DNA of 64,000 nt from Amphiscolops sp. MND2022 (lineage: Eukaryota), in assembly GCA_964187785.1 (NCBI GenBank), contig OZ076409.1, forward strand, positions 10,790,001 through 10,854,000. The letters are read 5' to 3'. Under the pieces are notes generated by a model. It saw only the letters and a list, made by a program, of their open reading frames with translations. It was not told where the DNA came from and searched no databases. The translations under genes and the position numbers were made by a program. Positions 11,178-53,259 of the stretch are shown here, piece after piece; position 1 is the first letter of the stretch; each line of letters starts with the position of its first letter.

Positions 11178-12701
11178 CCCTAGTCAAAACTGCCGTAACT
11201 TTTTACATGTTGCAGGCATGCACGCAGGGTAATTTTTTATAAAACATAGAAAATTCAGACTGCGCGCAGGGAAAAAACTTGTAAAACTACACTGCAGCAT
11301 GGAAAAGCCTGGCAGCATTTCACTGCGCGTTGAAAAAAAGTCGCTGCAACTTACAAAATTTTTGAAAAAAAGTCCCTGCATTGTTTTTGTTTCACGAACG
11401 TCAGCGCAAGCGTAAAAACATGTTTAAAAACTTCCTCAACATTGTAACTAGGATAGATATAATGATTTTTCTCTAAAATTGTCTGGAAAGCTGGAACCTC
11501 TACTAATGGCGAATTGAAAAAAAAACAAAAAAATGAATCTGAATTAGGATGATGATTAAGGAAATACAACTTCAACTTAGATCTTATTATACCAAAATTC
11601 AGTGATTTTAGACGTTCTTCCATAAATATAGTGATATTAGACGTTATTCCCCAAAAAAGTTATTTTAGACGTTATTCCACGAAAATAATGATTTTAGAGG
11701 TTATTCTACAAGGATACGGTGATTTTAGACATTATTCCAATGGAATACAGTGTTTTTAGATCTTATTCTACCAAAATAGAGTGATTTTAGACGTTATTCC
11801 ACAAATATAGTGATATTAGACGTTATTCCCCAAAAAAGTGATTTTAGACGTTATTCCACGAAAATAATGATTTTAGACGTTATTCTACCAGAATACGGTG
11901 ATTTTAGACGTTATTCTGGTAAAATACAGTGAATTTACATGTTATTCCAATAAAATAAAGTCTCTGGGTCTTTTTTTAAATAAGAACTCATCAGAAATGA
12001 AATACATTGTCCAAAATTCAACTGAAATTCTTAGATTAGAATTTTTCATTTTCGAAAAATTTATTGATTTTTTTTTCTCGAAAAACACCTAAATTTTCAA
12101 CTCACGCGGAAAACTTCAACAGAAATGCTCGCAAAAACCTTTAATAATCCTTCTTGTTAGTTTGTCATTTTTTCTGAAAATATTTGACGCTGAAAAGGTT
12201 GAAAAAATAATTCAAACTTCAACCAATCAAAACAGCCTAATTTTGATATTCCGTTCTAAAGTAGTTCCCTAAAAATGCCGTCTAGAACTTTGTTTTGGAA
12301 TTGTTTTTGTTTCTCCTAACCCGAAAAGTGATAAATATTGCCTATTTCGACAGTTTTCATGCAAAAAAAATTTTTTACACCGAAAAAAACTCCAGTAATA
12401 CGAATTTGTTTGCCACACTGGCACACGTAAAAATTTTGTTTACATCATATGCACTCATAAAATTTGAGGTTTTCCCCGCAAAAACATGGAAAATTTCGCG
12501 GGGAATTTTTCTTGAACTTCCTTGATGTTGCTCTGAAAACCCGCCAAATTGTATAGAAATTCTAATAAAAACCTGAAGAAATAGCATTGCATCAGGGAAA
12601 TATTTTGCATTAATGATTGTCTATGAAACTCCCAAAATCATGCTAAAAGTGCTTGGTAGCCTATGAAATCATGTACAAGTTTCAAGCAGTTTTAACTAGG
12701 G
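11178..12701. mobile_element. non-autonomous TIR element, family A, carrying an internal minisatellite
   Basis: CCCTAGTCAAAACTGC...GCAGTTTTAACTAGGG termini with TSD TT. Confidence 0.75.
11577..11955. repeat. ~30-bp minisatellite, about 13 units
   Basis: Repeating gtgattttagacgttattcc core. Confidence 0.9.
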
Positions 12702-15700
12702 TTCCCTTGGAAGTAGAACAAAACGTCTTTCCTTTTGAAAAAGGAAGCAAAAATTGAAAGGATAATTTTGTTTGAAATTACACGCAAAACGACGGCAGGG
12801 TACCGACGTGGATTTTATTTTTAAATTAATGTTTTCTTTGTGTTCGGAGACTCTGATATTTTTGATTCCAATGTTGCCATATTAGAGAAGCAAGCTCATA
12901 CTATCTCAAATCTCAAGATTTAATATCCTTTCAAGCTCAGCTTTGCGGAATTAAAAGGAAAATTGTGATTTCCTTTGAACACATTGAGGTACCCGTGTGT
13001 TCAAGATGGGGCCCAATTAGTGTGAAAATAGGAGCGGAATAATTCAGGAGTTAATAATTCACGAATGTTGAGATGCAACTTTGGGAAGTGAAAAAATGCT
13101 GTTTTATCCTTCAGAATAAAACCTTCGTGATTATTATTACTGAAGATTGAAAAATGGAATCCTGATGGGCAAAGAAAATCCTGTTTTAAGCTTGACTTGA
13201 ATTCAAAAAGTTACACATTTTAATCAGCACTTCTCGATGAGAAATTCTTGCAGCGTGCATATGAATTGTGAGTGTTTTCAGCATCGAAATTTCCATATTT
13301 GGCTGTTGTGAACTTTAATTACCCGAGTGAATATACCTAGAGTAGCTCTTAAGAAACAAATTTACCGAAATCCTTTACAGGTATAATTAGGCTAATTAAA
13401 TTTGCGAAGTTATTTCAAGTACTTTTGCAATCATGGCAATCAAAATATAATTTTTCGATTTTTGATACTTTGTGTTTCTATCTGATTTTTGCCGTTTTGA
13501 GTGTTTTCAGATACATTTTCGTTAGATATCAGTCGAATGCTCTGCTTATATTACCCGTACTGTCACTCCGCCTCAAACCATCGTTGTCCGCCAGTGGAGA
13601 CACTCTGGGGCTGCCAATTTCGTTTCCAAAAATTTCCAAAACGAAATTTGAATATTCAAATCACGCGCTCGAAGATGCTTGCCAGTGAATTTTTGCTTGT
13701 CATCATTTTTCAGTTTAAATTTTCTGATGTGTTTTTTCTGGTTTTGAATATTTATTAGTTGTTTCAGAGGGTTACATTAATGACCAAGGTAGCATTGAGG
13801 ACACTTTTTGGCACCGCGTTTCCTGAAACCGCTGGATAGATAGGATGTTACGAATTCTTGGTTAGATTGTCATGATTTTCAGATAAAATCTATCTAGATG
13901 GGAGGGAATAACAAGATCTAAAGAGTAAGATTTAAATTATTCCACCCCCAGTTCAAGATTTGGAAGGTCGCAGATCTAAAATTACTGTATTTTGGTGAAA
14001 AAGGCCCGGAATAGTTTTTCCGATAGAGTAAGTCCTTAAATAATTTTATTTTGGTAGAACAAGACCCAAAATAATTTTTCTGATAGAATATCTAAAAACA
14101 CTTTATTTTCATGGAAAAAGATCTCAAAAGACTGTATACCCATGAAATAAGGTCTAAAATAAATGTACTTTGGTGGAGTAAAGCTCAAAATCGGACTGGC
14201 AAAATGGATGGGTCTCAAAGCTACTCCTAAAATCATTATATTTTTCGTTCTTAGTTTGTTCTCCAATGGGCTTTTACTACACCTGCTCGTTAGTGAGGTT
14301 ATCAGAGTCGCTTTGTTGAATTTTTCCAATGCAAAATTTGAAAAAAAGAAACAGTTCCCTGTGTATCTGATGTGAATTTCAAGGACTTCTGAATGAAACA
14401 TTTTTTTCCGTGATTATTGATTTCTGTAGAACTTTGATTGATTCATTCTAAATAGGCTTATTCATGCACCTAATCGGCGGTAGCCCTGCCAACGTTGGCT
14501 GTTTCAGTAGGCCAGCCAAGACTAACAACTGATTTTTTTTCTGAGGTTCTGATATGGAGTTTGATGGACTTCGGATGCAATTTCACATTGAATTTTACAT
14601 TGATTTTTGAGAAATCCTTTGTTTTTTGTAGCTCTTTTTTCGGCAGCTGCTCTGGTGGAAAAAAAGTACAAAATCGTTTCTTTGATTGAGTAAGTCGTAA
14701 AATCATTTTTTTGGTGAAACAAGGCCCAAAATTTTCTTTCTGATAGATTATCCAAAAAATTTTTTTGATAGACTAAGATCTAAAAACATTGAGTTTTGGT
14801 GATAAGAGCCTATTATCTTTTGCCCGATAGAATAAGATCTATTATCATTGCAATTTGATGGAATAAGTCCTAAAATTGGACTGGGTGTTTGCCAACCTGG
14901 ACTTGTTACTGATTTATCACCATTGGAGCCATCGGTGGACAACGATGGAACTTTCGGTGACAACCGGTGGACATCGCCAAAACTGTGGATGCCACTTTTG
15001 TTGTCCACCGGTGGGACTTGTGTGGATCGTATGTGACCACCGGTGGACTGCAATTGGCTGCCAACCAGGGTAGAACATTTCCTCATGTAACGTCATAATC
15101 ATTGATCCATATAGTTATACAGTTTGAACATCAGTGAGCTAGGCTTCGAAGCTGTATAAAAACTGAACTCTTTATGAATCAATCCCTAGTTAAGAAGTTT
15201 TCCATGCTGCTTCTATGCATGCAAGGCTTTTTTCACAAAACATGGAAATGTTTGAATGAACTTTGTCGAATTAAAATGCAGCTTCCACTGTTTCAATCAA
15301 AACTGAAAAGTGACTGAAGTTGATTTGCATTAAAATGGCGGTAAAATTGATATGGTCTGAGCTGCATTAAAAAAACTGCTTTTTAATGGTACTTGGAAAA
15401 CTTGGTCGCTCCGAATGGCGCCCAATTTGGGTTTCATCTTTTAAATAAGCTTGATAAAATTCACTTGAATCAGTGAAAATTTGAGGCAAGAAAGTTTCCT
15501 TGAGAGTTTTATAAAATCAAAATGAATTAGGAATGAAATCAATGAAAAGATTTGAAATGATCTCTTAGCCGCGTGAAAACTTTCCTTGAATCCACTTGGG
15601 CCGAATGTCGTGTCGCAATGTTTTACAGAAAGCAATTGCTTCGTATTGGTAAGAAATCACCTCAGTGCCAACTATATGTAGCTTTTAATTGCTTAGGTGA

Positions 15701-17024
15701 CGTTTATATTGATTCAAATAAAATCTTTTCCACTTCAGTGAAGCTTTGTAATTGTAGAATTTTACAACAACCTTTATTGAAGTCGATATATCATGCCATG
15801 TTTTGATAAGGAGTTTGAAACTTATCAAAAACTGGCGCGCCCTTATCCCTTTTATTAAGAAAAGGTATAAAAAGTCAAACTCATACCAGATAAAAAATGA
15901 ACATTACATGAAAAAAGAAGCCTTTTTTCAAGGAGAAATGACAATCTTTGAGATCTTATAAAAGTTGCTTTTCAAACTTGGAATAAAGTCAGAGTTTGAT
16001 ACCTTTGAGTTTCTACCAAAGCACTGTTATTGAAACATTTCGTTTTTCTCACACTTCGATAGCTAGATTAAAACAAACTAACTTGAATTGCTATTTCTCA
16101 CAGTTAAAAAACATTGATTTACTTCATATTTTGTAAAATGTATCTTCTAAATATACAAAGACACTAACTTGGCATCATGAATGTTTCAAATCTAATTTTA
16201 AAGGCAGGACGAAACTGAAACATAAAACGACAGTGATCTTCTGAATTACCCAAATTCCATTGCCCGAACTAGCAAAATTGAGACTCCAATATCTTGAAAA
16301 CTGTCACAGTGGCATATCATAATTTCCTTCATTGGACGTTATTTACCAACAAAACCAGCCAAAGCTAAGTTTTTCGATTCTAGAAAATATTGGCAAAATC
16401 AAAAGTTTTTTCCGGTAATTTTTTTTTCGAAAAATTCCTTTTTCACCAAAACGTCCTTCTCTTTTGGGTTTCCCTATTTTAACTTTAGCAAAGATGTTTT
16501 ACGAGCCAAAATGATCCTTTTTCCACCACCATGTGATTTTGTGGGAAAAATTGTTTCCGGAAAAAATTCTCAAACAAAACGTTTTTTGATGTTTTTAAAT
16601 GAAGAAAAAATATTTCGAGGCCAGAGGGGGTCCATTCGAATTGTTTTGGCGACCTGAAGTTGATGACATTTTGTGCTTTTTGAGTTTTAAAGCATTAAGT
16701 TGAGGCCTTTTCGTCTTGTTCCTATAATGTCTAAAAAGTGGTCCATTGATGTGAGCTCAAGGTGGCTAGTTGGGTCGCTTTAAAGCGACCTGGTCGTTTT
16801 TGGTTGCTTTTTTTCCAAAGTAGCTTTTTTGGTCGCTTTTTCTACGAACATGTTTTTGATTGTTCAATAGTGTATCATTATCTATATGCCACAAATGTCA
16901 TATCTGGAAATATCATTGAATCTTTCTTTGTCAATAAGTTTTGAATGCTTTTGTGTATAACCTATCTCAGATATTATGTTCAACATTTTGTTCATATTAT
17001 AATTTATGGTTACTAAGCATGTTT

Positions 17025-17771
17025 TTAGTCCGCACTTCATGAAGTGAAAGGCGACTATTATAGTGGCCTTTTCTCAATCCACACGAACTGACCAAAATAG
17101 TTCTTAAAAGTTCTACAAAATATTATTGCACCAAATTGCGCTATTTGGTCTAGCGAACTGAACCAAAAAGGTTTTTCCTGATTTCCCGCGTAACATACCA
17201 TACCGGGCGAGACCAAAGGGTCCCCTTCCAATTTTTTTTCGGCACTGCGAGACTTTTTCCGGGAAATTTTTTTCCCCAAAGGGTCCCCCTTCAATTTGTT
17301 TGGCTGTTTTGCGACAGAATGGATGTTTGAAAATCCCAAAGGGTCCCCCCTTTCAGTTTTTTTTCGGCACTGTGAGTTTTTTTCCGAAAATAAAAATTCC
17401 CCCTTCAATTTATTGATGTTTTGCGACAGAATGGATGTTGAAAAACCCCAAAGGGTCCCCCTTTCAGTTTTGCGGCATTGTGAGACTTTTTTTCTATTTT
17501 TTTTTCTCTCCAAAGGGTTCTCCCTTCAACAACCTGCGACAAAAATGTTGACAATTTCGAAAGTGTCCCCCTTTTAGCGGGCCAGGGGCTCGCGCTAGCG
17601 GAATCCGGCGCGCCACTCGGTCCATTTTTTAATGTAATTTTTTCGAAAAATTTTTTCTCGAAAAATTTTCGATTTTCGAGTACTGTAAAAGAGAATATTT
17701 GAAACTTGGAAGTCTTTTTGCTATTTTTGAGCCTTGGAAATGGCGCCGACTTGGGCCGGTCCCAGCTTGTT
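17025..17771 (+). mobile_element. HINE/DINE-1-like (Helentron-associated) non-autonomous element
   Basis: 5' TTAGTC(C)GCAC hairpin, internal gggtcccc repeats, 3' GGCGCCGACT subterminal inverted repeat and CTTGTT end. Confidence 0.7.
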
Positions 17772-19803
17772 TGAAGAAACGTTAGGTAACTCTTTTGAGT
17801 TAAAAAAAATGAGTTAACATTGTTACAAATCAATACATGAAACAATATATCTGAAAATTGTTCAACATTGTAACAAAGTTGCAAAATCTGCGATTCTTGT
17901 ACAAACCCCAATAATGCATAAATAATCACGAACATATGTCAAAAATATTTATTAATTTACAATTTCTTTAAATCACTAGATCAATTGACATATGCTGAAC
18001 CAGTAGTTTCTTATGCGTTTGATATGCAGATTGAACAGAAAAGCACACGACACGCGTTACTTTCCAAAGCGTTCACGTTTTTTTTTTCGATTCAAGTAAA
18101 AAAAACGTAAATTTCTATGATTTTAATTGTGTCGTAATTTTTAATTTGCTGAAAAAAACTGGCCACTCTGTGTGAGCTTTGTAATTGGTAGAAAAGAACA
18201 AGACAAGAATGTTTCTAGTCGGTGCCTCATCTTCAGCTCAAATTTTGCCTCATCTACAGCTTTCAAATGTAATGAGAAACTGTTCTTATGGTCTTATGAA
18301 ACGTCTGAAAACTTCGCACTGTGCGGAAAACACTTCGGGTTTTAAAAAGCTTTGTCTCGGAAAATACTTTAAAAATAGGGGAAAACTCATTTCATGAGAT
18401 TGAACTACATTAAAAAAACGTCACAGTGCCAAAGGCAGACATTTAGGTTAGATGGAGTGTTTCAAAAAAGCCGCGCAGTGCCGATGAAAAATCCAAAGGG
18501 CACTGTTTGCTCTATTCATATTCGGAGAGCCTGTCATCATGACTTGCGCTTGCCAGTTTTTTGTCAAAAAATATCACGATATGATTTCAAATCAGGGACA
18601 TCAAATTACATTTTTCACTTTCAAATGATTTATCCTAACTTTTAGAATGTGATTACTTTTTTAGTTCAAACAAAGTAGCTTATGAAGTTCAAAAAGTTAC
18701 TATCCAGTTGCTAGAAGCAAAATAAATATAATTTCTACAAACTTATCAGTTCCTTTCATTTCCAATTGTGAAAAACTGTGCTCTAGGCGTTATATATTTG
18801 AAATCAACTGATATATTTATCATGAAAAAGTCATAAGGGACTTCTTCAATAGGGAGACAAATTTCGCAATATTCACATTTCGCATTTCTTCTTATGTTAA
18901 CAGAAAAGTTTCCTGAGAATCTTGAGGGTGTAAATAGATTACACCATTTTTCGGGGGGGGGGGGGTGTTTATTTGGGTGAGGCGTATTTACTTTTTGGCA
19001 TTTGTGGACTAACAACTATCCCTTCTACTCTCAGATGAATTTTGGGGAGATGATAGAATGTCATGCGTGAATGACTTGTCTTTCCAATTTCGCCATTCCC
19101 AGATTTCTTAGTCAAGTCTGAAAACGAAGACACCAATTACTCGAGGAAATTATTCACAGTTGATTTTGATTTTTAATAGATGGCAGACAGTATTAACCAA
19201 GGTTCCCAATCAGTCCGATTGATCTCGCTTTTCATTTTGCGCCTCTGCGGGCAAGAAGCTCTGAATTATGCTACACTTCGCATCAAAGGTCAATTTGTAA
19301 CATTGAAACTTTTGAAAAAAATCTGTGAAAAAGTTCAGATATTTCCGAAAATACAAATGATACGACGCTAGTTTTTCGTCATTGATTTATGTGTGAAAAC
19401 ATTTATCTTTTCATCAGTGTATTTCTAGAAAACAAACGCAGATTATAGAATGATATTTTTTTCACATGAAAATCAATTCCTTTCCGGATAAAAAGTTTTA
19501 ACGTATTTGGGTATGTCTCAGTGAATTTAAGGAAGCTAATTCAGCTTTCAAAGAAAATCGAAGTTACAAGCCTTATTTTGGTCTCGAACTCAACTCATTA
19601 TTGACACTAGCGCTGTAACTAAAACTAATTGATTAGGTATAATATCAAGCTTACCAGTACACGGGATCGATAGAAGCTTTTAGGTCTGCAATTATTAGCC
19701 GCAAATATTTCACTATTAGCCGCAAAGATTCGATCCACGCTACCCTGAATACTATTCCACACATATTTTTGAGTCATACCCGGTTAGGGAACCTGCTTTA
19801 GGA

Positions 19804-20373
19804 AACAAGACGGGAACGTCTAAAGTCGGCGCTATATCTAAGGCTCAAAAGGCGCAAAGTTTTTAAAATTGTAAAAGAGGGGGGACCCTTTAGACTTTTT
19901 CAAATCTAGTTTACTGCAAAATATCAAAGAAGTTGAAGGGGGACCCTTAGAAGACATTAAAAAAATTTTCGAAAAAAAAACGAAAAATGAGAATTTTGAA
20001 ACAGTCTTATAGTGCCGAAAAACAAGAAAGGGGAGACCCTTTGGGTTTTTCGAAACTTCAGTTTGCTGCAAAATATCAATAAACTGGAAGAGGACCCTTT
20101 GGCGACAAAAAAACATCCGAAAAAAAGTCGCACAGTGCCGAAAAAAATTCAAAGGGGGGACCTGTAGTCCAGTCCGGTTTTGTATCTTACGTTAAATTTT
20201 GAATACACGGAAGAGGGGACCCTTTGCATTAACTTAGATGCGTTTCCGCTTGCCGGTCCAGTAGTTTAGTTGTTCTGTAGAAAAAGTGTCCACTACGCAT
20301 ACATTCTGTGGTCTGTGGAAAAAAACTTCCCACTGTAATAGTCGGGCTCATTTTGATAAAATGCGCCGACTGA
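19804..20373 (-). mobile_element. HINE/DINE-1-like element
   Basis: AACAAG...AGTCGGCGC at the left end and GCGCCGACT at the right end; internal ggggaccc repeats. Confidence 0.7.
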
Positions 20374-23300
20374 AAACTGTGTTAACTCAACTGCCTAGTA
20401 AGTTTGTCACAGATGGATTAACCTTTCCAGCTAAAGGTCAACGTTACCAGACCAATGAGACAGTGTGTTTGGGTAATCGAGTTATGACATCAATATAAAA
20501 TCACAGAACACGATAAGAACGACAATCTTGCAATTGATTACTCAGCGAATATATGGGTTAAAAACACGGTTTCATTCACAATAGCAATCGACTACATTCA
20601 TCACTTCGTTTCGTTTGAGATATCACAGACCAAGGTCAAATGTCGTTTTTCGGTCGGGCCCACGCGTCCGGTCCCGCGTGCCTTAAACAAACATTACTCC
20701 GTGCGTGGTGGACCGATTTTTTTTGTATCGTTGATATATTTTACTTGGTGTTGGTAGGTGAACATCCTATGTAAGTTCCATGATCCTGGGGTCAACTGGT
20801 GACGATTTACATAACGTTCGGTGTTGGTTTACTTAGCGTCCGTGCTCCTTCTACGCGCGTCGTAGCGTTCCAAAAATATGCGCAAATGGCTTCATATCCT
20901 AAGGGTTATCGATTCCATTTGTTATATGACTTACTTCATGCTCCACCAACGAGATGACATCTGGTGCTAATAGCTCGGGACTGGGGGGCGACTCTCTTCT
21001 GTTTTTATAAATCAATAGCGTTACAGCTAAGGTAAACGTGTGCCGAATTTCTGGTATGGACGATTAATAGTCTTTGGGAAAAACGTTTTTTTTCTCTTTG
21101 GTGGGGGGGGGGGCGGTTGTTGGGTAAAAGTTTGCAATGTGACGATTTTCAGTGTGGTATCTCAGAGAAATTCGGACCAAGAGTGGGCCTTAGTAAAATT
21201 CGCTCTACGAGATTGACTCTGACTTTGCTGATTCGAATCACTCATTGTTGTCGTCAATTCTACAAGAGTGGCGAGAAGTTTCGTCTAATTAGGTAAACAC
21301 CGAGTTTGCCAATTGAGCCGTAACAAAATATGCTATAGTCAGCCTTTTCAGCTGCTTTTACTAATCCGACTGTCCGAAAACGTAATTAACATAGTTCAGT
21401 CTATCGTCTGGGCTTTGAGCAAAAAACGATGGGACTTTTATAGGAACGCCAAAAGTTAAAAATGCCACAAATTACAGCATTTTTTTACAATTACAAGAAC
21501 TGAATCGATGAAGTGTTGACAGTATTCTTCTGATAACGTCATCTCAATCATTTCAAGTGTAAAACAGTCGTTTGTTTCACACCATGTCATATTCTAATTC
21601 AACTTTGGAATAAAAGTTTAAAGTTCTATCTCCAATTTCCCACTCGATAGCCGTATTTTTCCAAGCATTTCTAGTTTCCATCTAATTACAATCAGGGACG
21701 GTTTTAGGATTTTTGAAACCGGGGCTATGTTGCGCACCGGAACGAGAGCAGCAGTTGAAACTTTGAAAGTAGGAAAAGCACCGGGTGCGTGAAATCAATT
21801 GATTCCATACAACTCTCCAAAGGAGGGGCGGTCCCCGATTACAGTTCGTTTTTACTTTCTCTGTTTTTACCTTCGCTTGGTGACACCGAGGAAAAGTCAT
21901 GACAACTATGTCGACCTTTTTCTGTTTTGCCCAACCATCAGAATTTTTCGAGAAACATTGACAAAAAAATTCAAACTGGCCGAATAAAAAAGATTTTTTT
22001 CTGTTACTGGAAGTTACCTTTATTGAAATTGTTCTTCGAACAAAACACTTTTCACACATTTTGACTTTGAGTATGTTCAATATCAACTGTTTTTTTTTCA
22101 AATGACTCAGAAAACGAAGCTGTTGATTTCTCTCAGAAAAGAACCCTTATTTCTACTCTGTCCAAAGTTGGGGGGGGGGGGGGGTGATTTTCGCTGCAGC
22201 TTTGTTGCAAAAGTATGCCGACAGACTGCAATGACATGTAATGTACGACGACTAGCGTTGTCCAAAATTCAAAAGAAGTTCATGATCAATGAATCGGCGA
22301 AGCGGGATAACCTTGAATGTGACGACGTCCCGTCGGTGGGTTGAATTGAAACTGCCAGAAGCAATTTTGTTTGAATGTTCTGGGAGTCAAATAGTGATGA
22401 AAATTCTACTTCTCATTTTTTCATTGTTTCATGCATGCTAAGATGAAGGAAGTTGTTATGTAACGGCACCCTCTGGTACAGCAAAATCAGCCAATTTTGA
22501 AACTTTGACACCTGAAATTTGGTCAAAATTTCTAATTCGATGTGTGACGTGGCACTGAGCATGCGATTTCTCTTTTGCTGTTTCCGATAACAGTTTGCCA
22601 TTACATTAGGTGGTAGCGCATCTAACCCTAAATGGACGATGGTACAATTTCGTACCAATTGGTTTCTGCAAACTTATGAAGGCACCAGCTGACCGGATAG
22701 TAAAGATAATCATGAATGAGATTTTCAGACGATATTACATAGCATTGCACGCCTTTTCACGAACTATTGACTTGATGTCTCTGAAATCAAAAATCAGGGA
22801 CCAAAAAATTGGAGAAAAAAACGGAGAGCAGATTTTCGGTTTTTCCTCTTTCTTTTTGTGGCCTTATTCCACTGGTATCAAGATTGGGTCAAAGCGGCCC
22901 TAGCATATTTTGAAACATGCTGAAATGCAATCCGAGACACGATGCTTATTTAGGATTAAAAGTAAACCTGCTCGCCTATTATAATGACGAGTTTTTTGCA
23001 GACTACAGAATGTATCTGAATAAACCACTTTTACAGACGTTTTTCAACTCGCTCGGCGGCGCCATTTGACCAAGTGGTTAGGGTGCGAGCTGCGAAAGCA
23101 AATCCTTCACAGGACTAAATTTTTCTAATGCTTTTTTGTGCAAAATCAAAGTGTTCCTCCTTCGGGTTTTCAATGGTATCAGTTAGAGGAGCTTTCGAAT
23201 AATTTTCAACAGCGTGAGATATTTTATAACTCTGTTAAGAAACCACATCCGCAATTCTTATTTCTTTTGAGGCCCTAAAAGATACATAAAAATGTTATCC

Positions 23301-24654: not shown

Positions 24655-25458
24655 CCCATGTTGAGCTTACCTTGAGAATCTGTAAAGATCTGTGAGCCAA
24701 TTTTCCTTGAGGATCTGTAAAGATCGTGCCACTGCTACGTAAGGAAAACTGCAGATCTGCAAGGATCTTTACAGATGTTCAAAGATTTTCAGTACAGATT
24801 TCTCAGGAAAATTTTTTCCGGACCTTCTAGTGAAACTATGCATTTCAGTTTTTAGCCTCTTCAGTAGATAGTTTTGCTGACCAAGGCTTAGTCAGTTGAA
24901 ACTCTCCATCACTCAAAATTCGTGAGCAGGAAATCTCCATCACGGTAATTTTGGTGTCTGGGGAATGTTCGGTATTGGTTATACACTGTAATTTATCCAT
25001 TTCACTTGAACTTTCCAGAAGTGGTTTTTCAACTTTGAGAGGCTCGTTTGCCATATTGACTTCGTTTTGACGGATGAAATTTGACATGTGACAACCTTCT
25101 GGGTTGGTAGAGGCGTTGATAGAGTGCTGTGGTTGTAATATTTCGGAAACATGGTTTGCTGGAGTAGTTTTGGTATTTGCTGGAAACTCGGAATACGTTA
25201 TAGTAATTTATTGGTATGGTTAATTCGTAACAAATCCTGGAATATCTGCAAAGATCTGTACAGATCTGTACAGAATCGCACAGAAACCTTTTTTAAAACC
25301 TCAAATAAGAGGTGTGTTTTTTTCGTAGAGCACTTTTTAATCAACTAATTTCTTTTTCGAAAACTGAATTTATGACTATTCATATTTCGAACAATCCTGG
25401 AATATCTGTCAGGATCTGTGCAGATCTGTACAGATTCGCAGGGAGTGCTCAACATGGG
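24655..25458 (-). mobile_element. ~810-bp TIR element, family B (CCCATGTTGAG ends), copy 1
   Basis: TIRs, TSD TA and subterminal ATCTGTACAG repeats; near-identical to copy 3 in inverted orientation. Confidence 0.88.
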
Positions 25459-26875
25459 TATACTCTGGACCATATATGGTCCAGAGTATGGTCAGCCTGG
25501 AAACATTAGCCTTTATGGCGCAAAGTATGATGACCCTGTTTTTGTACGGGAGGTGAACCCGGGAAATGAAAAGCGAGACATGAAAAACAATGTTGAATTG
25601 GTTGAAACCATGTCTTTTAAATGATAAAGAAGGAATTTTGATTTCGGACAATTTTCCCCAAAATGGTTCTCACTTATTTTTCCGAACAGCTTTGTTTCAT
25701 GATTTGAATTTTCTACACTTTTTCAATCTTTAGATCTTTGATCACTAGTTGAAACGACAAACTTTTCGCAAGGAATTGGTTTGTAAACATTGCCTTAATC
25801 GAAACAATTCCTTATATCATTGTCATGCAAGAAAACTCCTCGTGAAAGCTCTCATGATGTTTGGATAAGAAGCCGGTTTTCTTGAAAATCGCGCACCAAT
25901 TGTTTCCTAGGATGTTCAATTGAGATTAGGGATAAACTATGCACGTTTTCATAACAAATTATGCAGCTATCATTAGAAAGTTTTGACCCGAAAGTTGCAA
26001 ATTCCAGTAACTAACGGCAAAAGCGAACAAAGAAATTGGTTTGCGGGAAAAAAATCCGTTAAAAGAAAGGAAACTGTCACTTCTGCTGATATGTTTTGCC
26101 TGATTCAATATCCATTTAGAACACTATTGTTTTTTGTCAGCAAACAAGAAAATTTGACTTCTTTCATAACCTTTAACTTTTTCATTGATTTTTAGGAGAA
26201 AATCAAAAAGAATGTTTCATTATCGGAAAATTTGCCTTCATATGAATTTCTACTGATAAGGAGTCCCTTCATTTTGCCTTTTAATATCAGTTTTATTATC
26301 ACCTTATAAGTCACCACGGATAAGGTGTGTATATATTGGTATATATGATCACGTGTTCATTCCTTTTAGGTCGCCAAAACGAGGGAACCTGTGGTGTGAC
26401 ACAAATTTCAACCTTTTTGATTCTAATTACAGTAATTTGAAAAAAAATGACAGGTACTTAAAACCAGACTTTTTAAGGACCATTCGACTTCAACTGAACA
26501 GGAGGTGGTGAAAAAGATAATCGATTCGAACAAAAGGCGAACTTAACAAATGCACTTTCCATGGCAAATTTTTCACACTTCCCGCGTTTCAATTATAATT
26601 ACCTTCATTTAGATATCTTAGGTGGAGAAGCTATTTGTTTTATTGGTTCTCAGGAATAATTCGTCAGCTTTAATTTTCAGCTTTTCCTCCCTGGGGTTTT
26701 CCTGTTATTCACCACAAATGATTCATTTATTTTTGGGTGCTGAATTGTAAGTCCGTCGACTTCATTCAATTCTATTTTTCAAAGCCGGGATTCCAATTTC
26801 GTCGGGCTCTTGCGTTGTACAAACATTTGCCATTCTTATTGTTTTAATGCCATAATAAGACAGTTAGAAAAGCAA

Positions 26876-27693
26876 CCCATGTTGAGCACTCCCTGCGAAT
26901 CTGTACAGATCTGTACAGATCCTGACAGATATTCCAGGATTTTTCGAAAATTAACTAGTCAAAAAACAGTTTTGAAATTGAAATTAGTTGAATAAAAAGT
27001 GCTCTACAAGATACACACGTCTCCTAGTTAAAGTTTTGAAAAAAAATTTCTGTGCGAATCTGTACAGATCTGTACAGATCCTGACAGATATTCCAGGATT
27101 GGTCGTAAATTAACCATACTAAAATAACCAATAAATTACTATAACGTATTCCAAGTTTCCAGCAATTACTAAAACTACTCCAGCTAACCATGTTCCCGAA
27201 ATATTACAACCACATTCCTTTATCAACACCTCTACCAACCCAGACGGTAGCCACATGTATAATTACATCCGCCAAATCGAAGTCAATTTAGCAAACGAGC
27301 CCTTCAAAGTTGAACAGCAACTTCTGGAAAGTTCTAGTGAAATAGAGAAATTACCGTGCAAAACCTATACCAAACATTCCCCAGACACCAAACTTACCTT
27401 GATGGGGACAAGTTTTCCTGCTCAAAAATTTTGAGTAATGGAGATTTTCAACTGACTGAGCCTTGGTCAACAAAAATACTTGTTGAAGAAGCCGAAAAAA
27501 AGGCAATACATTGTTTCCCAGAAGCTCCGCGAAAAAATTTCCTGAACAATCTGTACAGAAAATCCTTGAACATCCTTAAAGATCCTTGCAGATCTGCAGT
27601 TGTCCTTACGTAGCAGTGGCACGATCTTTACAGATCCTCAAGGAAAAAAGGCTCACAGATCTGTACAGATTCTCAAGGAAAGCTCAACATGGG
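26876..27693 (+). mobile_element. ~810-bp TIR element, family B, copy 2
   Basis: CCCATGTTGAGC...GCTCAACATGGG termini with TSD AA. Confidence 0.88.
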
Positions 27694-28230
27694 AAAGAAA
27701 TAATCTCCAGAGATTATCTTTTCAGAGGAATTCTTTTAGGATTGATTGAGTGTCCGCTGAATTTTAATCGACAACCGTTATTTCATAAGCAAGATCTTTA
27801 CAATAGTTCCAACTGAGATACATTTTTTTAATGAAAAAAATAATTCCCTCTCAAAATTAAGTCGCCGTTTCCATTTATTTGAAATTATTAAAAGCTCAAA
27901 GACAATAGTATGCTGTATGAAAACTGTACAAGTTACCTATTTTGCCCACATTCCATTGCACACAAGCTCATGATCACAAAAAGTAATGATTATAGATAAT
28001 GAAAATTGTGCGTAAAAGCGATGAGTATTTAATTATTTTATGATTTTTGGCATTGATTGTGGGAATGAGAGAGAATATATTTCAATCAAGAATTCATCGT
28101 TTCTCATACTTTGATCATACTATGAAACATGATGACCATAGTATAAATCATAGCATGATATGTAATGCTTCTACATGCAATGTATACTTCTATTATAGCG
28201 GGGTATTTATGTCAGTTGAATAGATATACT

Positions 28231-29039
28231 CCCATGTTGAGCACTCCGTGCGAATCTGTACAGATCTGCACAGATCCTGACAGATATTCCAGGATTGTTC
28301 GAAAATTGAATAGTCATAAATTCAGTTTTCGAAAAAGAAATTAGTTGGTTAAAAAGTGCTCTACGAAAAAAAAACACGCCTTTTATTTGAAGTTTTAAAA
28401 AAGTTTCTGTGCGAATCTGTACAGATCTGTACAGATCCTTGCAGATATTCCAGGATTTGTTGAAAATTAACCATACCAATAAAATACTATAATGTATTCC
28501 GAGTTTCCAGCAATTACTAAAACCACTCCAGCAAACCATGTTCCCGAAATATTACAACCACAGCACTCTATCAACACCTCTACCAACCCAGAAGGTTGTC
28601 ACATGTCAAATCTCATCCGTCAAAACGAAGTCAATATGGCAAACGAGCCTCTCAAAGTTGAAAAACCACTACTGGAAAGTTCAAGTGAAATGGATAAATT
28701 ACAGTGTATAACCAACACCGAACATTCCCCAGACACCAATATTACCGTGATGGGGACAACATTTCCTGCTCAAGAATTTTGAGTGATGGAGAGTTTCAAC
28801 TGACTGAGCCTTGGTCAGCAAAAATATCTACCGAAGAAGCTAAAAAATGAAATGCATATTTTCACTAAAAGTTCCGGAAAAAATTTCCTGAGAAATCTGT
28901 ACAGAAAATCTTTGAACTTCTGTAAAGATCCTTGCAGATCTGCAGTTGTCCTTACGTAGCAGTGGCACGATCTTTACAGATCCTCAAGGAAAATTGGCTC
29001 ACAGATCTTTACAGATTCTCAAGGAAAACTCAACATGGG
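28231..29039 (+). mobile_element. ~810-bp TIR element, family B, copy 3
   Basis: CCCATGTTGAG...CTCAACATGGG termini with TSD CT. Confidence 0.88.
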
Positions 29040-30148
29040 CTTTCATCAAGGGTACGTTTACAAAACGCCCATTTTTTAAAATTTCAACAACTAACCATAC
29101 TGACCGAGGTTGACCAAGGTTGACCAAACATACTCACCATGCTATGATCATACTATGGTCATCATGCTATGGTCATCATGTTTCATAGTATGATTAGATC
29201 AAAGTATGAGAAACGATGAATTCTTGATTGAAAATCAAGATATCGGGCATGGAAATCTCTTTTTAACAAATCTCAAATTGCTTACCAAGTCTTTATGCCG
29301 TGTTTTTAGGGGGGGCACTTAGCTCGTAAGATACATAGTATCACACTTGACGAGACCCAGGGCAAAACCGTGGCATCTTTTGGGTCTCCATGTACCTGAA
29401 AAGCACGCAAAACTTTCTGACACGAAGTTGTTAGAAAGAGATTTGAAAATTGGGCAAAGTAGAAGCTAAATCATGGAAATTACTTGTTAAAATAGCAGGA
29501 ATCAGATTTAAAACATGGGTTATACTAATTTGGAAAGGAAATAAAGATCCCGAAAGACAGTATACAGTATATAAAAACTGCACAGTTTTGCCTGAAATTA
29601 GTTCTATAATCCAAAATTTCCTACATATCTAGCGACTTCAGGAAACGATGTACCGAAATGAATCCTTAATGCAACCGGGTCATTAAGGCAACCCTCAAAC
29701 CCTTCGAAAGCGACAAAAATAGTAACATTCTGTTTCCCTCCCATTGTCTTGATCTATCAGGAAAATCTCCTCCCAAATATTTTTTTCATGACTCCAGGGT
29801 GACAACAAACAAAAATTTTCACAAACTTTTTCCTGACAGGTTTCATTCAGAAACGTGACTGCTTTTCAGGATAAAATATGAAAAGAACAAACTCCTTTTG
29901 CAGAAATTTTCAGATTTTCAATAACTTTCAACCACTACAAGTTTTCGTGAACAAATGCAAAAAAGGAGTTAGTAGTCTTTCATCACGTGCTTGAGAAAAA
30001 TGTATGAAACAAAACCTCCAAAACGCGTGAACATTCTTCAAGGAGCACTACTTACTCTATTATTTGAATGGTAGTATATAAAGGTATATAGTTTAAATAA
30101 TTAATTTGACCTTGAGCCAGCATGAGTGATTGGCATCTTTGGATACAG

Positions 30149-30430
30149 GTACTTATCTATCCGGTCCCCTCTGGCCTACCTGAAAGAACGCACAAAGAGG
30201 AGAGCATACATAATCATCACGTGTGTTTGGATCCTTTCCTCCATCTGGATAATTCCCATATATGGCTATCGCGCAGTGGCCGGAGGACACTCTCTGGATA
30301 TCTACGAGGGAGAGTGCCAGACAGAATTCAATCTGGACCTCAAGTTCAAATTTGTGTCCGGACTCTTCAACTTCTGGCTACCCCTGTCAATCATCATTTT
30401 CACCTACATAAGAATTTTTGGACATATTAG
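30149..30430 (+). CDS. HRH1: histamine H1 receptor-like GPCR, exon encoding end of DRY, TM4, ECL2 and TM5
   Basis: AG|G TAC completes the DRY motif with the previous exon; YLSIRSPLAY...VWILSSIWIIPI...EGECQTEF...FKFVSGLFNFWLP...YIRIFGHI; gtgagt donor. Confidence 0.93.
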   Translation, partial: VLIYPVPSGLPERTHKEESIHNHHVCLDPFLHLDNSHIWLSRSGRRTLSGYLRGRVPDRIQSGPQVQICVRTLQLLATPVNHHFHLHKNFWTY

Positions 30431-31175
30431 GTGAGTCCTTCAATCAAATTACCGACCACGTTTCTTGTTTTCCCCAGGTACCCCTTGTCGCCTTGTTTCA
30501 AAGCCCTCATAAAAAAACTTGTTCCCTTGTAACCCCCCCCAAAAAAAAACAAAAGAACATTTTATTCTTTAAGAAAATTATTTCACTAATAGGATAATTA
30601 AACATGGTTGTGAATACTAGGAGGATTGTTTCTATAGTTGTTTTACACTTCCAGCAAAAATGACCCTCATTTTTCGATCGATATGATTGTCCCAATTAGC
30701 AAAAATTCACCCCTGGAATAAGCTAAAATCGTATGAAAGGGCCCCTATTTCAACACCATTTTTCTCCGCCATAAAATTCAACGAGCAACTTTTAGCTGGC
30801 AGTCAATGTAACATAGAAAAGATAGGATTATGTCGACATCAATTATTTTATTGGACCAAAAATTCAACGCAATCGATGTCGACATAATGGTATTTGAACT
30901 CGCAGCCGCTTGGGCGGGAATAAGAAACATATTCCCAAATTACATTAACTTCGAACAGAGACTCTATAATAAGACCAGACAAACTCTTTCGTGTAACCCC
31001 CTTAATTTCCTTCCCCTCAAAATACCCGTTATTCTAGTGAAGAGAATTTACGCGACAGGGTTCAATTCGTAACCGGAAACTTGCTATTGCATAGATAACC
31101 TGCTTCATTGGTCTACTAGAAAATCTCCAAAATTTGATCACGTTCTCAAGAGTTGATTTCAGCTGAAAAAGATGC

Positions 31176-31369
31176 ATCAAAATCCAGTGGAAATTACTTT
31201 TAAAAAACTGTTGTCCACACCCGGGTTCAAATTGTCTGTCATGGCCCGTTCATGGAAATCATCCATGATCATATGATCATGGATGATTTCCATGAACGGG
31301 CCATGACAGACAATTTGAACCCGGGTGTGGACAACAGTTTTTTAAAAGTAATTTCCACTGGATTTTGAT
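31176..31369. repeat. perfect 194-bp palindrome without spacer (no. 1)
   Basis: 97-bp arms checked base by base; centre CAT|ATG at 31272/31273. Confidence 0.97.
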
Positions 31370-31391
31370 CAATTTATCACTGGAATTTGAT

Positions 31392-31585
31392 CCTCAATTT
31401 ATCAATTACCAGCCTTCTCGCAATTTTTAGCTTTCTGGGGCATCCATGATTTTCCATGAAAGTATAAGTAATGCGTCGAAAAAGCCATATGGCTTTTTCG
31501 ACGCATTACTTATACTTTCATGGAAAATCATGGATGCCCCAGAAAGCTAAAAATTGCGAGAAGGCTGGTAATTGATAAATTGAGG
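31392..31585. repeat. perfect 194-bp palindrome without spacer (no. 2)
   Basis: 97-bp arms checked base by base; centre CAT|ATG at 31488/31489. Confidence 0.97.
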
Positions 31586-32369: not shown

Positions 32370-33544
32370 CCTCTAGTGTCCTAATTGCAGGAGCGATGCG
32401 AAGCAAAGCGACGTGCCACTACTGGCCAAGTGGCTGGTTTTGACAAAGGCCGACCTGTAGGAGCGCGCTAGTAAATATGTTATTGCCGGTTATGCTGATA
32501 ATTATATGTTATTTGCTCTTATGCTAGTTGGTACGTCATCACTACTTTTTTCTAAAGCTTCATTAATTTTGGCAACAAGATCACAGTTTTTATCCAATTA
32601 CGCAGTATTTTATCAATTACTTCTCATGACAATCCTACGCAAGATTGATTTCTACATCAATGAGAGTTTGACTGCTAAATATCGCAATTTTCTAATTGGG
32701 TTTGATCATATACCTTTCTTTCCAGATCAATTAGAATTTTTCCACTTTTTTCAGCTCTATTTTTTCTGCCCCTATTTCCTATGAGAAAATAAACGACTTT
32801 CAGCTGCGCCTTTTCCTACCCCGGTTTAGAGGCCATGGCTTTCTATCCATGATTCATCAATTCGCCGCTCCGAGAATCATTCCATGATCATGGAAAGATA
32901 TCCACGGTTCATGGGTGATCATGGTTGCTTAAAGGGCCTTAACTTTTTTCCATTTTGGTTAAAGTGATGTTCTCAAATACCACTAAAATAGAGAATCAGT
33001 GAACTGAACTTAGTAGTTCTACGTCTAAAAATCTATGTGTCAATTCGTACGAAACTTTGTTTCATATAATTACAAAGCTATGAACCTGATTCAGCTAGTT
33101 AATTTCAAAGCACTTTTGGAGGTTTCATAGGTTTTACAATTTGTGATTTTCCCTCATTTTTGCAACAAACACTTTTGTGAACAAAATTCGTTCAAATTGA
33201 ATGCTTCTGATTGGTTTCTGCTGAAAGGAAAAATTTATCACAGTCTTGCTAAAAGCCGCCATAAATAACACAACATTGCTTTCTGTCATGGAGTCATGAT
33301 CATGGATGAAAAGCTGAGAATAAGACATGATGATCAACCTGTGTATTTTTGCCATGTTTGAATGCTATACTCAAAAAACAAAAATTTTCTGAAGAATTCA
33401 ATTTCAGCAAATTTAGGTTCGTAACGTATGTATTTGTGAGATTGTTTGAAGTTTGAATGAAGTGCCTCAAAAGAAAAGTTGCAAAATTGTGAAAAAAGGT
33501 GATTTTAGTCGCATAAGTGGTGATTTTCATTTCCATTATTATTT

Positions 33545-45161: not shown

Positions 45162-45660
45162 CCCAGCGTTCGACATCTTGAATATCATGCCAAAAATCTT
45201 GCCCGATCTTCCAAGATCTTGCAAAGATCTTGCAAGATCTTTCAAGATCTTGCCAAGATCTTACAAGTTCTGGCAAGATCTTCGAAGAAATGCAAGATGA
45301 AATCCTAAGATTTTGTCAAGATATTCAAGATGAACTCCAAGATCTTACTACAAAGGAATCCAAGATAGATTCCAAGAACATATTTGTCGTTCATGTAGTT
45401 CTTGTGCAAGCAACGCTTCCAGAAACTGAACATTGTCCTTACTCTGAGGTAGAGGCTCTCTGCTGATGTGGATTAATATAACACACGTGTCAGGACTCAA
45501 TATATTCAAGATGTCAAAACAAAATCCAAGATCTTGCCAAGATATTCAAGATCCAAGATCTTGTCAAGATATCCAAGATGAGACACTAGATCTTTCAAGA
45601 AATTCAAGATGTCAAGATAAAACCTAAGATCTTTCCAAGATATTCAAGAATTCAAGATTT
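45162..45660. repeat. CAAGATCTT-rich repeat array, probably a decayed CCC-ended element
   Basis: Many short AAGATCTT/CAAGAT units starting at CCCAGCG; same motif as the family C subterminal repeats. Confidence 0.55.
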
Positions 45661-45860
45661 TCCTGAGAAGTTTCGCTACAATTGAGATCGTTAAAGCGCT
45701 CAAGTGCTGATACAAATATCATAATATGAAACACGGGATCTCAGACCTGAATTAAAAAACGCGTCAAAGTTGGACAATGGTGATCAGATTGCCATTTTCA
45801 AAAAATTTCGACTGATATGAGAGGTCTAGGTGGGTAGAGTAGCATCAGTGCACTAGCCTA

Positions 45861-47350
45861 GTGCAGTTACTGACAATGTTTAATTCAAAGCTCTACTCAA
45901 AAACAAAAGCATGTGTAAAAGTGGGCAACTGTTATTCTAGTTTTTTCAAATGTGAGGATGGTGTTAGGCAAGGTGATAATTTATTACCACTATTGTTGAC
46001 AATTTTTGTAAATGACTTCAAAGACTACTTGAAAAAGCATTGTAAAGGATTGAGTTTTCTATCGAATTCACTGAATAGCAACCTGGATGTCGACGACGAG
46101 GAAATCTTTGCCCTTTTGTATGCCGATGATACCATTATTTTGACTGAAAGCGAAGAAGACATGCAAAAAGCATTAAATGCTGCATATCAATATTGCTGTA
46201 ATTTCAACATTCGAATAAATTGTTCCAAAACGAAATATATGATCATCTCCAGGGGAAAAGTTCGAACATTGTCAGTGATGATAATAAGCAACAGGCCAAT
46301 AGAAATAATTGATAGTTTTAGCTATTAAGGGATAATTTTCAAGTACAACAATGCCTTTCAACTAACCATAAAAACTACGTTGACAAAGCAAAGAAAGGGT
46401 TATTTAAGTTGAGAGCCGAAATAAGTGGTCATGAACTCGCAATACAGACAAAACTAAACTTGTTTGACTCAATTTTTTGACTGATTCTAACCTATGGTTG
46501 CGAAGTTTGGGGACATGAACTTTTTAAACAGATTGAAATTTTTTATCGGAATCTTTTGCGAACGCTTTTAAACGTTTGGAACAGTACTCCAGAGGCTATG
46601 ATTTACGGAGAATTAGGCATAAGTGAAATAAAATATCGAATTTGGCTCCGAGTTTTAGGTCTTTGGAGAAGGTTGAGCGACGACAAAAATAAACTCTCGT
46701 CCCTAATTTAAAAGTCCCCACGAAAAATTTCCCATCCAGAAAAATGGTTGTCTTGTGTTCAAACAATACTGATAGAATGCGGAATGGAATTCCCGCGCTT
46801 ATCATTTTATCGAAAATGTTAATGAAGCTTACGTTAAAGAGTATACCAGGAACAAGCTGCAGGATGTGTCAATACAAGAGTGGATCACCTCAATGAAAAA
46901 TAACTCATTCTGCAGAGTGTATGCTGCATTTAAAAACAAATATCGAATCGAGCAAATGTTTTACCCTGAAGACAAAAAACAGAATTGAGTTGAGTAGATT
47001 TCGATGTGGTGCTCTGACTATAGCAGTGGTCAGGGAAAAATTTACGGTGCTAAAAGAGACGCATTGTCCGCTCTGTAATAATCAAGTGAATGCGGATGAG
47101 TACCACTGTTTACTGGTCTGCGCTGAGGTATAAGACTTACGTGCAAAATACCTCAGCCAGTGCTATCAGCAAAACCCTAGTCTGCTGAAACTTGACGAAC
47201 TGATGAACTTGAAAAGCACCGTAAGATTAACGCACTTCAGTATGTATTGTATATTGGTCACCGACCGTGTCCGCTGTAAACTTGAAAGTTTGAGTTTTGT
47301 AAACCCCACGGGGTAACAAATATGAATTAATTATTCATTCATTCGTTCAA
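45861..47350 (+). mobile_element. 5'-truncated, decayed LINE (RT pseudogene, RTEX-like)
   Basis: GVRQGDNL and LLYADD RT motifs, then LTYGCEVWG, MIYGELG, LSRFRCG and CPLC..DEYH...C across stops and frameshifts; (ATTC)n tail near 47334-47348. Confidence 0.88.
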
Positions 47351-49492: not shown

Positions 49493-51303
49493 CAAGCAAT
49501 TGTGAAAAATCAAAATATTGTAACCTTAGGCAAATCCTTAGGCAATTGAGAGCACAATAACAAGCATTAATTGGAACTAAAAGGCTTTTTCGAAGTCCGA
49601 ACCGAGCAAAAAAAAGAGTTTTTCCAGTTTTCACAAGGTTTTATGCCTTTTTCACAGCTCTTGAACGTTTGCGGAAAGTATCAGAATCCGATGAGTTCTA
49701 ACACAAAACGGTTATTACCTAGCAAATTTTGGTCGAAACAAACTATTTTTTCAAAGAGTTCTGAATAAGCAAAACGTCAAAAAATTTTACTCAAAGGTGG
49801 CTTGTTGTTCGCTTCAGTCATTGATTAGCGGACATCTTGTAGGATAATGTGATGGACTCTAACGGTGACTTGTTTTTAGGCGAACTTAACACTGACGAAG
49901 AATTACGTAACTGAGGGTTTTGCATCCATCATGCAATTCAACAAAGATTGCCTAAAATAAGATACGTTTTCTGTTTCGGAAGAAATGCTTTCATTTCTCG
50001 AACTGCTATTTTTTTTCTTTTGGGAGCACTTCAAAAATAACCCTTATTATCACAATATTTTAGGAAATTTATACAGTTCACCAAAGTACCCAGATAAATC
50101 CATTCTGGCGGCAAACTAAACGGCTTGGGATCCTTTGAGATTCCGAACTGTAGCCAAAGTTCTTAATTCTTGAGAAAAAAAAAGATGAAAAATGTCGTTG
50201 GTAGTGAGTAATCTGAAATAATCACAGCGAAGAAATCCCGAGAGAAGCGCGTTATTGTCTTTTTTATTGACTAAAGTGTCAAATCCAAAAGAATGCCAGA
50301 CATAGAGATGGCAGGTTCCGGAGATACACTTTTACTCAATTTTAAATGTTCTCGGCAGAAAAAAAAATCGCGATAGAAGCTTCACATTTTCAAATACCAG
50401 CAGATTAAAATCACAGTGACCTCAAAGGACATGCCTATTAAAATGTCAATGATAAATGATCAAACGTTTATCGATTTCATTCACATTTTCTCATTTTAAA
50501 TTCTCATTTGAGAAAAAAGCGTTGATCAACTTTGATTTAAATAGAACAAACGTTTTATATTTGTAATAACAATTGCTTTGATCAATTATGGATGTGATAT
50601 TACTTCATGTATTTTATATCAGATCATAAAATAAGACAAGCTTGTATCAATCAAACCACGACTTTCAGTTAATGTCACTGAGAAGCTTAAGCAATGTCAA
50701 TCTCATAAACCCGATCTTCTTTGACTTGATAAAATGTCAGTTGAGAGAAGATACATGATGTAATTAACAGTTTACCTATTTATTTTCAACAACTATTTAT
50801 TCAACTACATTTTTCTGAAATTTTGGCACCTTAAGAAATGTACTTTTTTTCTGAAAAAGTCTTTTATATCTTGCTGCTGTGTCCGTTATGTTTTGGATAT
50901 TGAAGTTTATCACCGAGTCGAGTTGAACCCTCAAAGCCCCAAAGAGAGTTTTGTGAAAAAAGACCATATAAGGAACCCTGCGGTTGAAAACTCAAAACAT
51001 TTTCAAGTCTAATTACAGCTTTGGATCTTTTCTGTTAACAAACACCCCCAAAGTAAGCGGGAAAAAATTTTATCCCAAAACAAGACCCGATATTCTCAAG
51101 AAACCCCCCCTTCCCCAGTATCAGCGATGAGTTTCAGTAGCAGTTCGAGTTATAAAATACTGCAATTTGATTGGTTGCTGCTATTAGTTCAATGATAATT
51201 TCACTTGACCGCTTAACTGGGGGGAGGGGTGTTTATGTAACTAAATCGGTGGGGGATTAACATAAAATATCTGCAGCTTTAGCTGGGTTTGCATTTTTTT
51301 CAG

Positions 51304-51534
51304 GAAGAACTCCAGAATGCAAATAGGTCAAAAGACAACCCTGGGCGCTTTGGTCAAACAGACGGCGCTGGTTCCTGGAGCTCTGGGTAATAATTTGAAA
51401 AACGTGGGCCCTAAGGAGAATGTGGAAGACAAGAAGCATGGTGTGAACAATAAAGGGGAGAGTGCGAAAGTTGCCGGGGAATCGGTCAAGGTCATTGGCT
51501 GTAGCACCTCGACAGAGACACCTGCCAAAAATAG
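51304..51534 (+). CDS. HRH1: histamine H1 receptor-like GPCR, intracellular loop 3 exon
   Basis: Strong acceptor (tttgcatttttttcag), phase 2-2, 231 bp, open frame (R)KNSRMQIGQK...PAKN(R), gtacgc donor. Joins both neighbours in frame. Confidence 0.75.
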
Positions 51535-52269: not shown

Positions 52270-52511
52270 GTACACGAAGCGGTGTTCGACGGCGTCAAAT
52301 ATGACGTCAGACAAAGGCGGGTCTCTGCGCAGCTACAGGGGTGGGGGAGGGGTTGCTTCTCACAGGCCCAGCAACGTGTCTGTGATCAGCGAGGCCAAGT
52401 CCAAGTCTGTGCGGTCCACAAGCGCCTCCATGCTGCTACAAGAGGCCAAGAGCAAGTTCATCATCTCGCATTCCAGCGAAATCAAAGCTGCCAAACAACT
52501 CGGAATCCTAG
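52270..52511 (+). CDS. HRH1: histamine H1 receptor-like GPCR, exon encoding ICL3 to start of TM6
   Basis: aag|(R)YTKRCSTAS...SEIKAAKQLGIL|gt; KAAKQLG is the H1-type motif before TM6. Confidence 0.88.
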
Positions 52512-52689
52512 GTTCGTTTCCTACGATTTGCTATTTTTTAACGAAAAAAAAACTATTATCTATCAAATGCATTTAACGAAGATCTTCGCTCAATCGGGGT
52601 ATAATATTAAAACCGGATCCAAATTCATGAGGCTTTTTTCATACGATTCAATGCATTGAACCATATGATAAGTTTGATTCCCGTGGTTT

Positions 52690-53042: not shown

Positions 53043-53106
53043 TCTGGTTCACCTAGGTAGTAACATGTACATGCGGATGACGTCATCATTGGTTGTTGTG
53101 TTGCAG

Positions 53107-53227: not shown

Positions 53228-53259
53228 GTACATACGTCACACATACGTCACACTCGGCA

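Follow-up and report, generated by a model that had tools for sequence, protein, structure and literature searches.

The 64-kb stretch of DNA analysed here (G000:C1:10790001-10854000), referred to as the window, carries a GPCR gene whose plus-strand exons were located by tblastn with two acoel GPCRs at 8954-9151, 30147-30431, ~51278-51436, 52352-52537, 53100-53231 and 57391-57543. Its closest named homologues come from acoel worms and share 71% identity with it. The exon at 30147-30431 on the plus strand encodes part of a rhodopsin-family (aminergic-like) receptor (7tm_1, E 3.8e-14) and is followed by a donor GT at 30432. This donor opens a plus-strand intron of ~20.8 kb (30432-51290), whose 3' end is approximate, the next tblastn match beginning at 51278. 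About 745 bp into this intron lies a pair of long palindromes, and the GPCR exon matches on either side uphold their earlier placement within a receptor intron.

Several other elements are found in the window. The GC-rich first 4 kb contain two long minus-strand frames (476-3946) that resemble those of an LTR retrotransposon, one being Gag-like with a zinc knuckle and the other like an aspartic protease. A 161-aa plus-strand frame at 45843-46328 resembles a fragment of a LINE reverse transcriptase and has a YADD motif. Three related copies of a unit longer than 1 kb occupy ~24800-29100, and palindromes of 20-22 bp centred on AGATCT occur within this repeat region at 25255, 26899, 27058 and 28415.

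The pair in the intron consists of two perfect palindromes without a spacer, at 31176-31369 and 31392-31585, each with arms of 97 bp and the common centre CAT|ATG. Arm A (31176-31272, plus strand) is the original left flank and ends in the first copy of a duplicated AT (31271-31272). Arm A' (31273-31369, minus strand) is its inverted copy with no mismatches, and would correspond to a 97-nt P-tract derived from a left hairpin. On the far side, arm B' (31392-31488, minus strand) is a mismatch-free inverted copy of B and a putative 97-nt P-tract of a right hairpin, while arm B (31489-31585, plus strand) is the original right flank and has the other copy of this AT (31489-31490) at its start. The total structure measures 410 bp, and an A-B allele without the scar would measure 192 bp. 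The runner-up among perfect zero-spacer palindromes in the window has arms of only 15 bp. The twin palindrome is a real feature of this locus, and its description in the first-pass annotation as two 194-bp, mismatch-free and spacer-free palindromes centred on CATATG is confirmed.

The 22-bp linker between the palindromes (31370-31391) is a mosaic of two local copies. Its first piece (31370-31379) is an exact copy of 31395-31404, identical at 10/10 bases, and its second (31378-31391) agrees with 31356-31369 at 13/14 bases, with one substitution; the two pieces overlap by CA. With both pieces located, the earlier view of the linker as a templated mosaic is borne out. Pattern searches of the assembly with each palindrome centre returned a match at this locus only. 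Each centre being unique in the assembly, the scar did not multiply together with its repeat family, nor does CATATG recur as a motif. The predicted RNA fold of the region forms two hairpins at -349.5 kcal/mol (z = -50).

The ancestral site

The 1,067-Mb assembly was searched with each arm, and the best 40 of 144 and of 171 candidates, respectively, were scored. Within these best 40, each arm had 39 further scored matches, all confined to inner parts of the arms, and part 57-97 of arm A and part 4-56 of arm B match neighbouring places in other copies. The repeat concerned is the left end of a ~1-kb non-autonomous DNA transposon of the CACTA/EnSpm type with termini CCCAGGTTG. The remnant at the locus spans only ~100 bp of the roughly 1-kb element and is split by the scar. 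Its left part (31220-31272, plus strand; BLAST match from 31232) has a degenerate left end that reads CCCGGGTTCAAATTG in place of the family terminus, and its right part (31489-31541, plus strand) directly adjoins the left one in the sisters. More degenerate pieces of the same CACTA-type family lie in the window at 8409-8501, 32845-32927 and 45385-45499.

Across the site, 41 of the 52 oriented copies read ATCATGGAT, the remainder being single variants, and CATATG is present in none of the 52. Since the sisters carry C-AT-G at this position, the shared centre is explained by one duplicated AT, and the appearance of CATATG on both sides follows from the mirroring of CAT and ATG. The simple A-B ancestor that had been proposed is thereby supported, with the two arms adjoining in other copies, but the CATATG junction attributed to it is not, the ancestor having read C-AT-G.

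Relative to this ancestral site, the locus has gained a net 218 bp. The sister copies supply an empty ancestral site without palindromes, as is expected for a hairpin-type footprint; the AT target duplication is present on both sides of the inserted sequence, and both palindrome centres abut it, at what would be the former element borders. An element-filled allele was seen neither at the locus nor at any other site, and the assembly is without a second haplotype. Over 92 columns the locus copy shares at most 94.6% identity with the family, whereas no mismatch separates its arms, which indicates that the duplication is younger than the decay of the remnant.

The transposon family

A 2-bp target site duplication (TSD) flanks 25 of the 30 two-ended family copies, varied in sequence (AT in three cases), and a 3-bp TSD was found in 0/30. 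The family ends CCCAGGTTG..CAACCTGGG display the short TIR that, with a TSD of 2-3 bp, characterizes CACTA/EnSpm elements. The termini are CCC..GGG and so differ from the 5'-CA..TG-3' of most CMCT elements. CCC ends occur in animal EnSpm.

Transposase_21 (PF02992) has 19 matches in the genome. Four element copies that are 99.6-99.8% identical over 9.5 kb contain a 728-aa open frame, which scores 30.9 bits against PF02992 (cut-off 28.6). This frame carries CTLC and HSLRH, corresponding to the C(2)C and H(3)H signatures of EnSpm, Transib and RAG1 (PMC12730594). No solved structure matched the 728-aa transposase. The autonomous copies share their terminus with the host family, as seen at the one end of the autonomous element examined. 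A recently active CACTA-type system with a 2-bp TSD is present in this genome. The element of copies L256-L259 also contains a SET-domain frame (PF00856, E 1e-9) directly upstream of the transposase, at L259:3053-3991 and common to L256-L259, and a 446-aa frame with no Pfam match.

Excision of the hAT type, suggested earlier beside the RAG type, does not fit the locus, where its geometry was rejected: hAT geometry entails an 8-bp TSD and a complementary centre base, whereas the locus has a 2-bp duplication and no centre base. The 8-bp geometry was also rejected for the L263+L201 and L237 pairs described below. An element of the CACTA/EnSpm type with a 2-bp TSD would account for the locus instead.

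Long palindromes across the genome

The genome was sampled in 136 evenly spaced 10-kb stretches from 13 large contigs, amounting to 1,358,400 bases without N, or 0.13% of the genome. A score of at least 20 defined the long near-perfect inverted repeats; scars with two short arms fall below this threshold. Sorted by spacer, the sampled long palindromes comprise 13 with none, 8 with one nucleotide, 0 with two and 8 with 3-12 nt, and shuffled sequences gave no long palindromes at spacers of 0 and 1. The 21 with spacers of zero or one nucleotide are spread over 15 sampled stretches, and the rate of long-armed events in the sample is 14 per Mb. Extrapolated to the whole genome, this corresponds to ~15,000 scars, with a Poisson range of 9,000-23,000 that widens given clustering.

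If these palindromes are footprints, partners are expected across the former insertion. A partner was defined as a palindrome on the far side that carries the reciprocal dinucleotide and whose perfect arm measures at least 4 bp; with a T-centred case (L127) left out, 20 palindromes representing 19 events were tested, two stretches being extended with their neighbours. A same-dinucleotide partner was found for 8/13 zero-spacer palindromes. For one-spacer palindromes the figure is 4/7, a fifth having a partner at arm 3, under a rule (C at the left centre, G at the right, two shared bases) that was taken from the very data used to test it; the 2-bp idea alone predates the sampling. Taken together, partners with the matching dinucleotide appeared in 12/33 tests compared with 12/495 for other dinucleotides, and 0.5 would be expected at random sites against the 12 observed. 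Tests for wrong-side or wrong-base partners gave 0/49, and cross-class tests 0/33. One or two of the 12 partners may have arisen by chance (L102, L186): that of L102 looks like a chance match, and L186 could be an 8-bp hAT-type scar instead. Against the footprint reading, 8 of the 20 tested palindromes lack a rule-matching partner of at least 4 bp.

The twins recovered have arms of 58/151 bp (GA) and 8/293 bp (AG) at L070, 179/11 bp (CA) at L128, 6/45 bp (AT) at L073 and 103/81 bp (GG) at L263+L201. A second empty site was identified by comparing L080 with its relative L051, where the flanks overlap by 2 bp; for the L070 twin, an empty site was sought but none was recovered. Several joins carry local templated repeats resembling the linker at the locus. 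Aged arms contain mismatches (11/110, 6/50 and 4/47 bp, and also 7/73), and L199 is a decayed twin. The tabulation of paired palindromes by arm and centre that the first-pass annotation had called for, carried out on the 136-stretch sample, returned the pairs but not the equal arms.

The second scar class, with a one-base centre, is represented by L080:3752-3954, L114:9138-9364, L237:676-892, L263+L201 and L046:218-352. Its left partners are C-centred and its right partners G-centred, with two bases in common, which would place the nick one base into the element. Among short perfect palindromes with a one-base centre (arms 8-19), the centre is C or G in 54/95, in a genome of ~36% GC, and this excess suggests that many more short scars exist.

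Five long palindromes, representing four events, lie within 7 kb at L070:663-7442, and eight 10-kb stretches neighbouring L070 hold four more with a score of at least 18. Regional clustering was considered and set aside, 200 kb adjoining sampled matches having yielded only 4 new palindromes at a score of at least 18.

The genome-wide class with its 2-bp CACTA-type signature is the finding of this work; the symmetry of the twin that led to it is incidental. The 21 long arms of the sample have a median of 81 bp and extremes of 21 and 293 bp, and no 10-bp phase was seen in their lengths. The other twins with two long arms are unequal (the 58/151 and 103/81 cases), and most pairs combine a short arm with a long one. 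One side measures only 3-11 bp in 8/11 tabulated pairs, which shows that near-tip opening also happens. A log-normal fit puts the probability that two long arms are exactly equal at 0.007, and ~10 equal-arm twins are expected genome-wide (range 1-38). The 97/97 equality is a matter of chance, and the fixed opening distance once read from it is rejected by the spread of arm lengths and the unequal twins.

Repair genes

Ku70, Ku80 and DNA-PKcs are all present, which rules out a loss of classical end joining at the level of Ku and DNA-PKcs; the genome is not simply short of this pathway. Two POLQ_helical loci are consistent with POLQ and HELQ, which were not told apart. In an exon-by-exon search, PF07522 matched 1 of 9 candidates, identified as SNM1A (G000:C12:2815696-2824548), and the SNM1A query returned no paralogue, so that neither Artemis (DCLRE1C) nor Apollo was detected by this search. 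A search with PF12706 missed even SNM1A and is therefore uninformative, so that a possible absence of Artemis is no more than a lead.

Proposed mechanism and alternatives

The twin palindrome is probably the excision footprint of a CACTA/EnSpm-type element whose flank hairpins were opened ~97 nt back and rejoined by templated copying. A two-hairpin footprint with a templated join, the core of the earlier interpretation, is retained as the best reading, but a hAT culprit, the CATATG ancestor and the fixed opening distance are not. The starting point, an older truncated family copy with C-AT-G at the site, is visible in the sister copies. A 2-bp-TSD element would have inserted at C-AT-G to give CAT-element-ATG. 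RAG-style excision would then have nicked exactly at the border and sealed each flank, together with its TSD, as a hairpin, producing CAT|ATG twice. In the one-base-spacer class, the nick would instead have fallen one base inside the element, with C and G as the ends.

Plant CACTA footprints offer a further basis for such flank hairpins, and no paper directly showing them for CACTA enzymes was found in the literature. The chemistry is otherwise assumed by analogy, from the kinship of these enzymes to Transib and RAG1 (PMC12730594).

Opening of the hairpins could have proceeded in several ways. We slightly favour a nick on the 5'-side strand far from the tip by an MRN/CtIP-type cut, which would fall 20-300 nt back across the class and would leave long 3' tails. 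In yeast, Mre11 resolves ends capped by hairpins, and its cuts lie 41-300 nt away from ends that are blocked (PMC6315862). The same product would arise if the tip were opened and the strand then refolded and was extended by a polymerase, a credible, if less probable, sub-step; replication round the hairpin seems improbable. The two 3' tails would then have been joined by two microhomology-primed copying rounds of the Pol theta-type or SD-MMEJ kind, as the templated linker suggests. The linker has the properties of a Pol theta-type insertion, being copied from break-flanking sequence with microhomology at the switches. To the base, the second copying round stops where arm A' does, a hint that the template physically ended there. 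The same palindrome grammar recurs at other loci of the sample, with arms of 21-293 bp.

The alternatives differ mainly in what they predict away from the locus. A non-transposon break with a 2-nt 5' overhang, filled in, sealed or folded back at its ends and then processed and joined likewise, would yield the same duplicated AT and the same zero-spacer centres, and breaks of the Spo11 type have such an overhang. No excised element is visible at the site, as this explanation would have it. It leaves unexplained, however, the class with C on the left and G on the right, which are the terminal bases of the family and for which 4/7 palindromes have a partner of at least 4 bp against 0/49 in the wrong tests; a recently active transposon with a 2-bp TSD is, moreover, already in the genome. 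We therefore consider such a break unlikely. Still less likely, in our judgement, is a small circle, comprising 192 bp around the site plus the linker, that integrated anew in inverted orientation, or template switching over several replication steps. Both are topologically equivalent to the footprint at the locus, where the linker connects the outer ends of both arms, but they require donor and target to be cut at the same two bases, and they predict neither short partners (3-11 bp) facing long arms (24-293 bp) nor the spectrum of 0/1-nt spacers. The circle raised in the first-pass annotation is accordingly not needed, and would not explain the short partners at other sites.

A chimera of library preparation, amplification or assembly would fit the 100% identity of the arms and the many mismatch-free palindromes of the sample. 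It is opposed by mismatched, aged members (L110, L199, L108 and L144), including the decayed twin, and would not be expected to give the shared-dinucleotide and C/G rules or a templated linker with one substitution; we give it very little credence. The preferred reading remains excision of a CACTA/EnSpm-type element with flank hairpins.

A broader proposal is put forward tentatively, and we regard it as possible but doubtful. Artemis may have been lost in an acoel-like lineage that kept Ku and DNA-PKcs, and CACTA-type excision may there routinely leave germline palindromes with arms of 20-300 bp. The ~15,000 scars would then form a fossil map of back-up nuclease cuts in vivo, and would preserve two nick geometries of CACTA enzymes, one exactly at the border and the other shifted one base into the element.

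Palindromes that are long and lack a spacer are usually regarded as unstable and rare. With ~14 long-armed scars per Mb, this genome would demonstrate that a transposon and a repair route together can mass-produce palindromes and keep them. The scars would also reveal the cut geometry of CACTA/EnSpm enzymes, on which we came across no direct biochemical work; the lengths of the scar arms would document the opening of hairpin-capped ends in an animal germline. Intronic scars would place long perfect dsRNA stems in pre-mRNA. The single locus alone, like its equal arms, carries little weight.

Comparison with known systems

Our literature search found no account of long paired palindromes as CACTA footprints, older work on Spm and Tam1 footprints lying outside its scope, and none of palindromes in acoel nuclear genomes, most subscription titles lying outside it.

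The system described here resembles CACTA/EnSpm elements (CMC, CMCT clade) in its PF02992-type transposase with C(2)C and H(3)H motifs and in its short TIRs, and the TSD of the family falls within the 2-5 bp range of the CMCT clade; its CCC..GGG termini, in contrast, depart from the CA..TG of most of that clade (PMC12730594). The templated linker is similar to products of SD-MMEJ, having been copied from both sides of the break in what appear to be successive microhomology-primed rounds (PMC5728401). Foldback insertions in yeast are primed by nearby microhomology and are mostly 5-34 bp (PMC11724301). Unlike these, the scars have longer arms, spacers of 0/1 base and a paired arrangement tied to a duplicated dinucleotide.

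Ac/Ds elements of the hAT superfamily likewise leave palindromic additions on one or both sides of the empty donor site, which are explained by flank hairpins (PMC5873905). Their centre is complementary to the base that flanks the element (PMC5873905), whereas the centre at the locus has no extra base and that of the second class has C or G. Their P-tracts reach 3 nt in Candida albicans and 20 nt in Saccharomyces cerevisiae, and the scars differ in their 2-bp duplication and in arms of 97 nt at the locus and up to 293 nt in the sample, against at most 20 nt for Ac/Ds (PMC5873905). RAG1/2 coding ends share the zero-spacer palindrome that arises from an exact cut, and the longer P-tracts that follow when tip opening fails: V(D)J P-tracts are normally 1-2 nt, and typically 1-7 nt without Artemis (PMC2193825). 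In contrast to these coding ends, the scar has no RSS and appears to be germline and fixed. Set beside these systems, the scar is probably an excision footprint of the hairpin type, in a class whose P-tracts are 5 to 15 times as long as any that we found in print.
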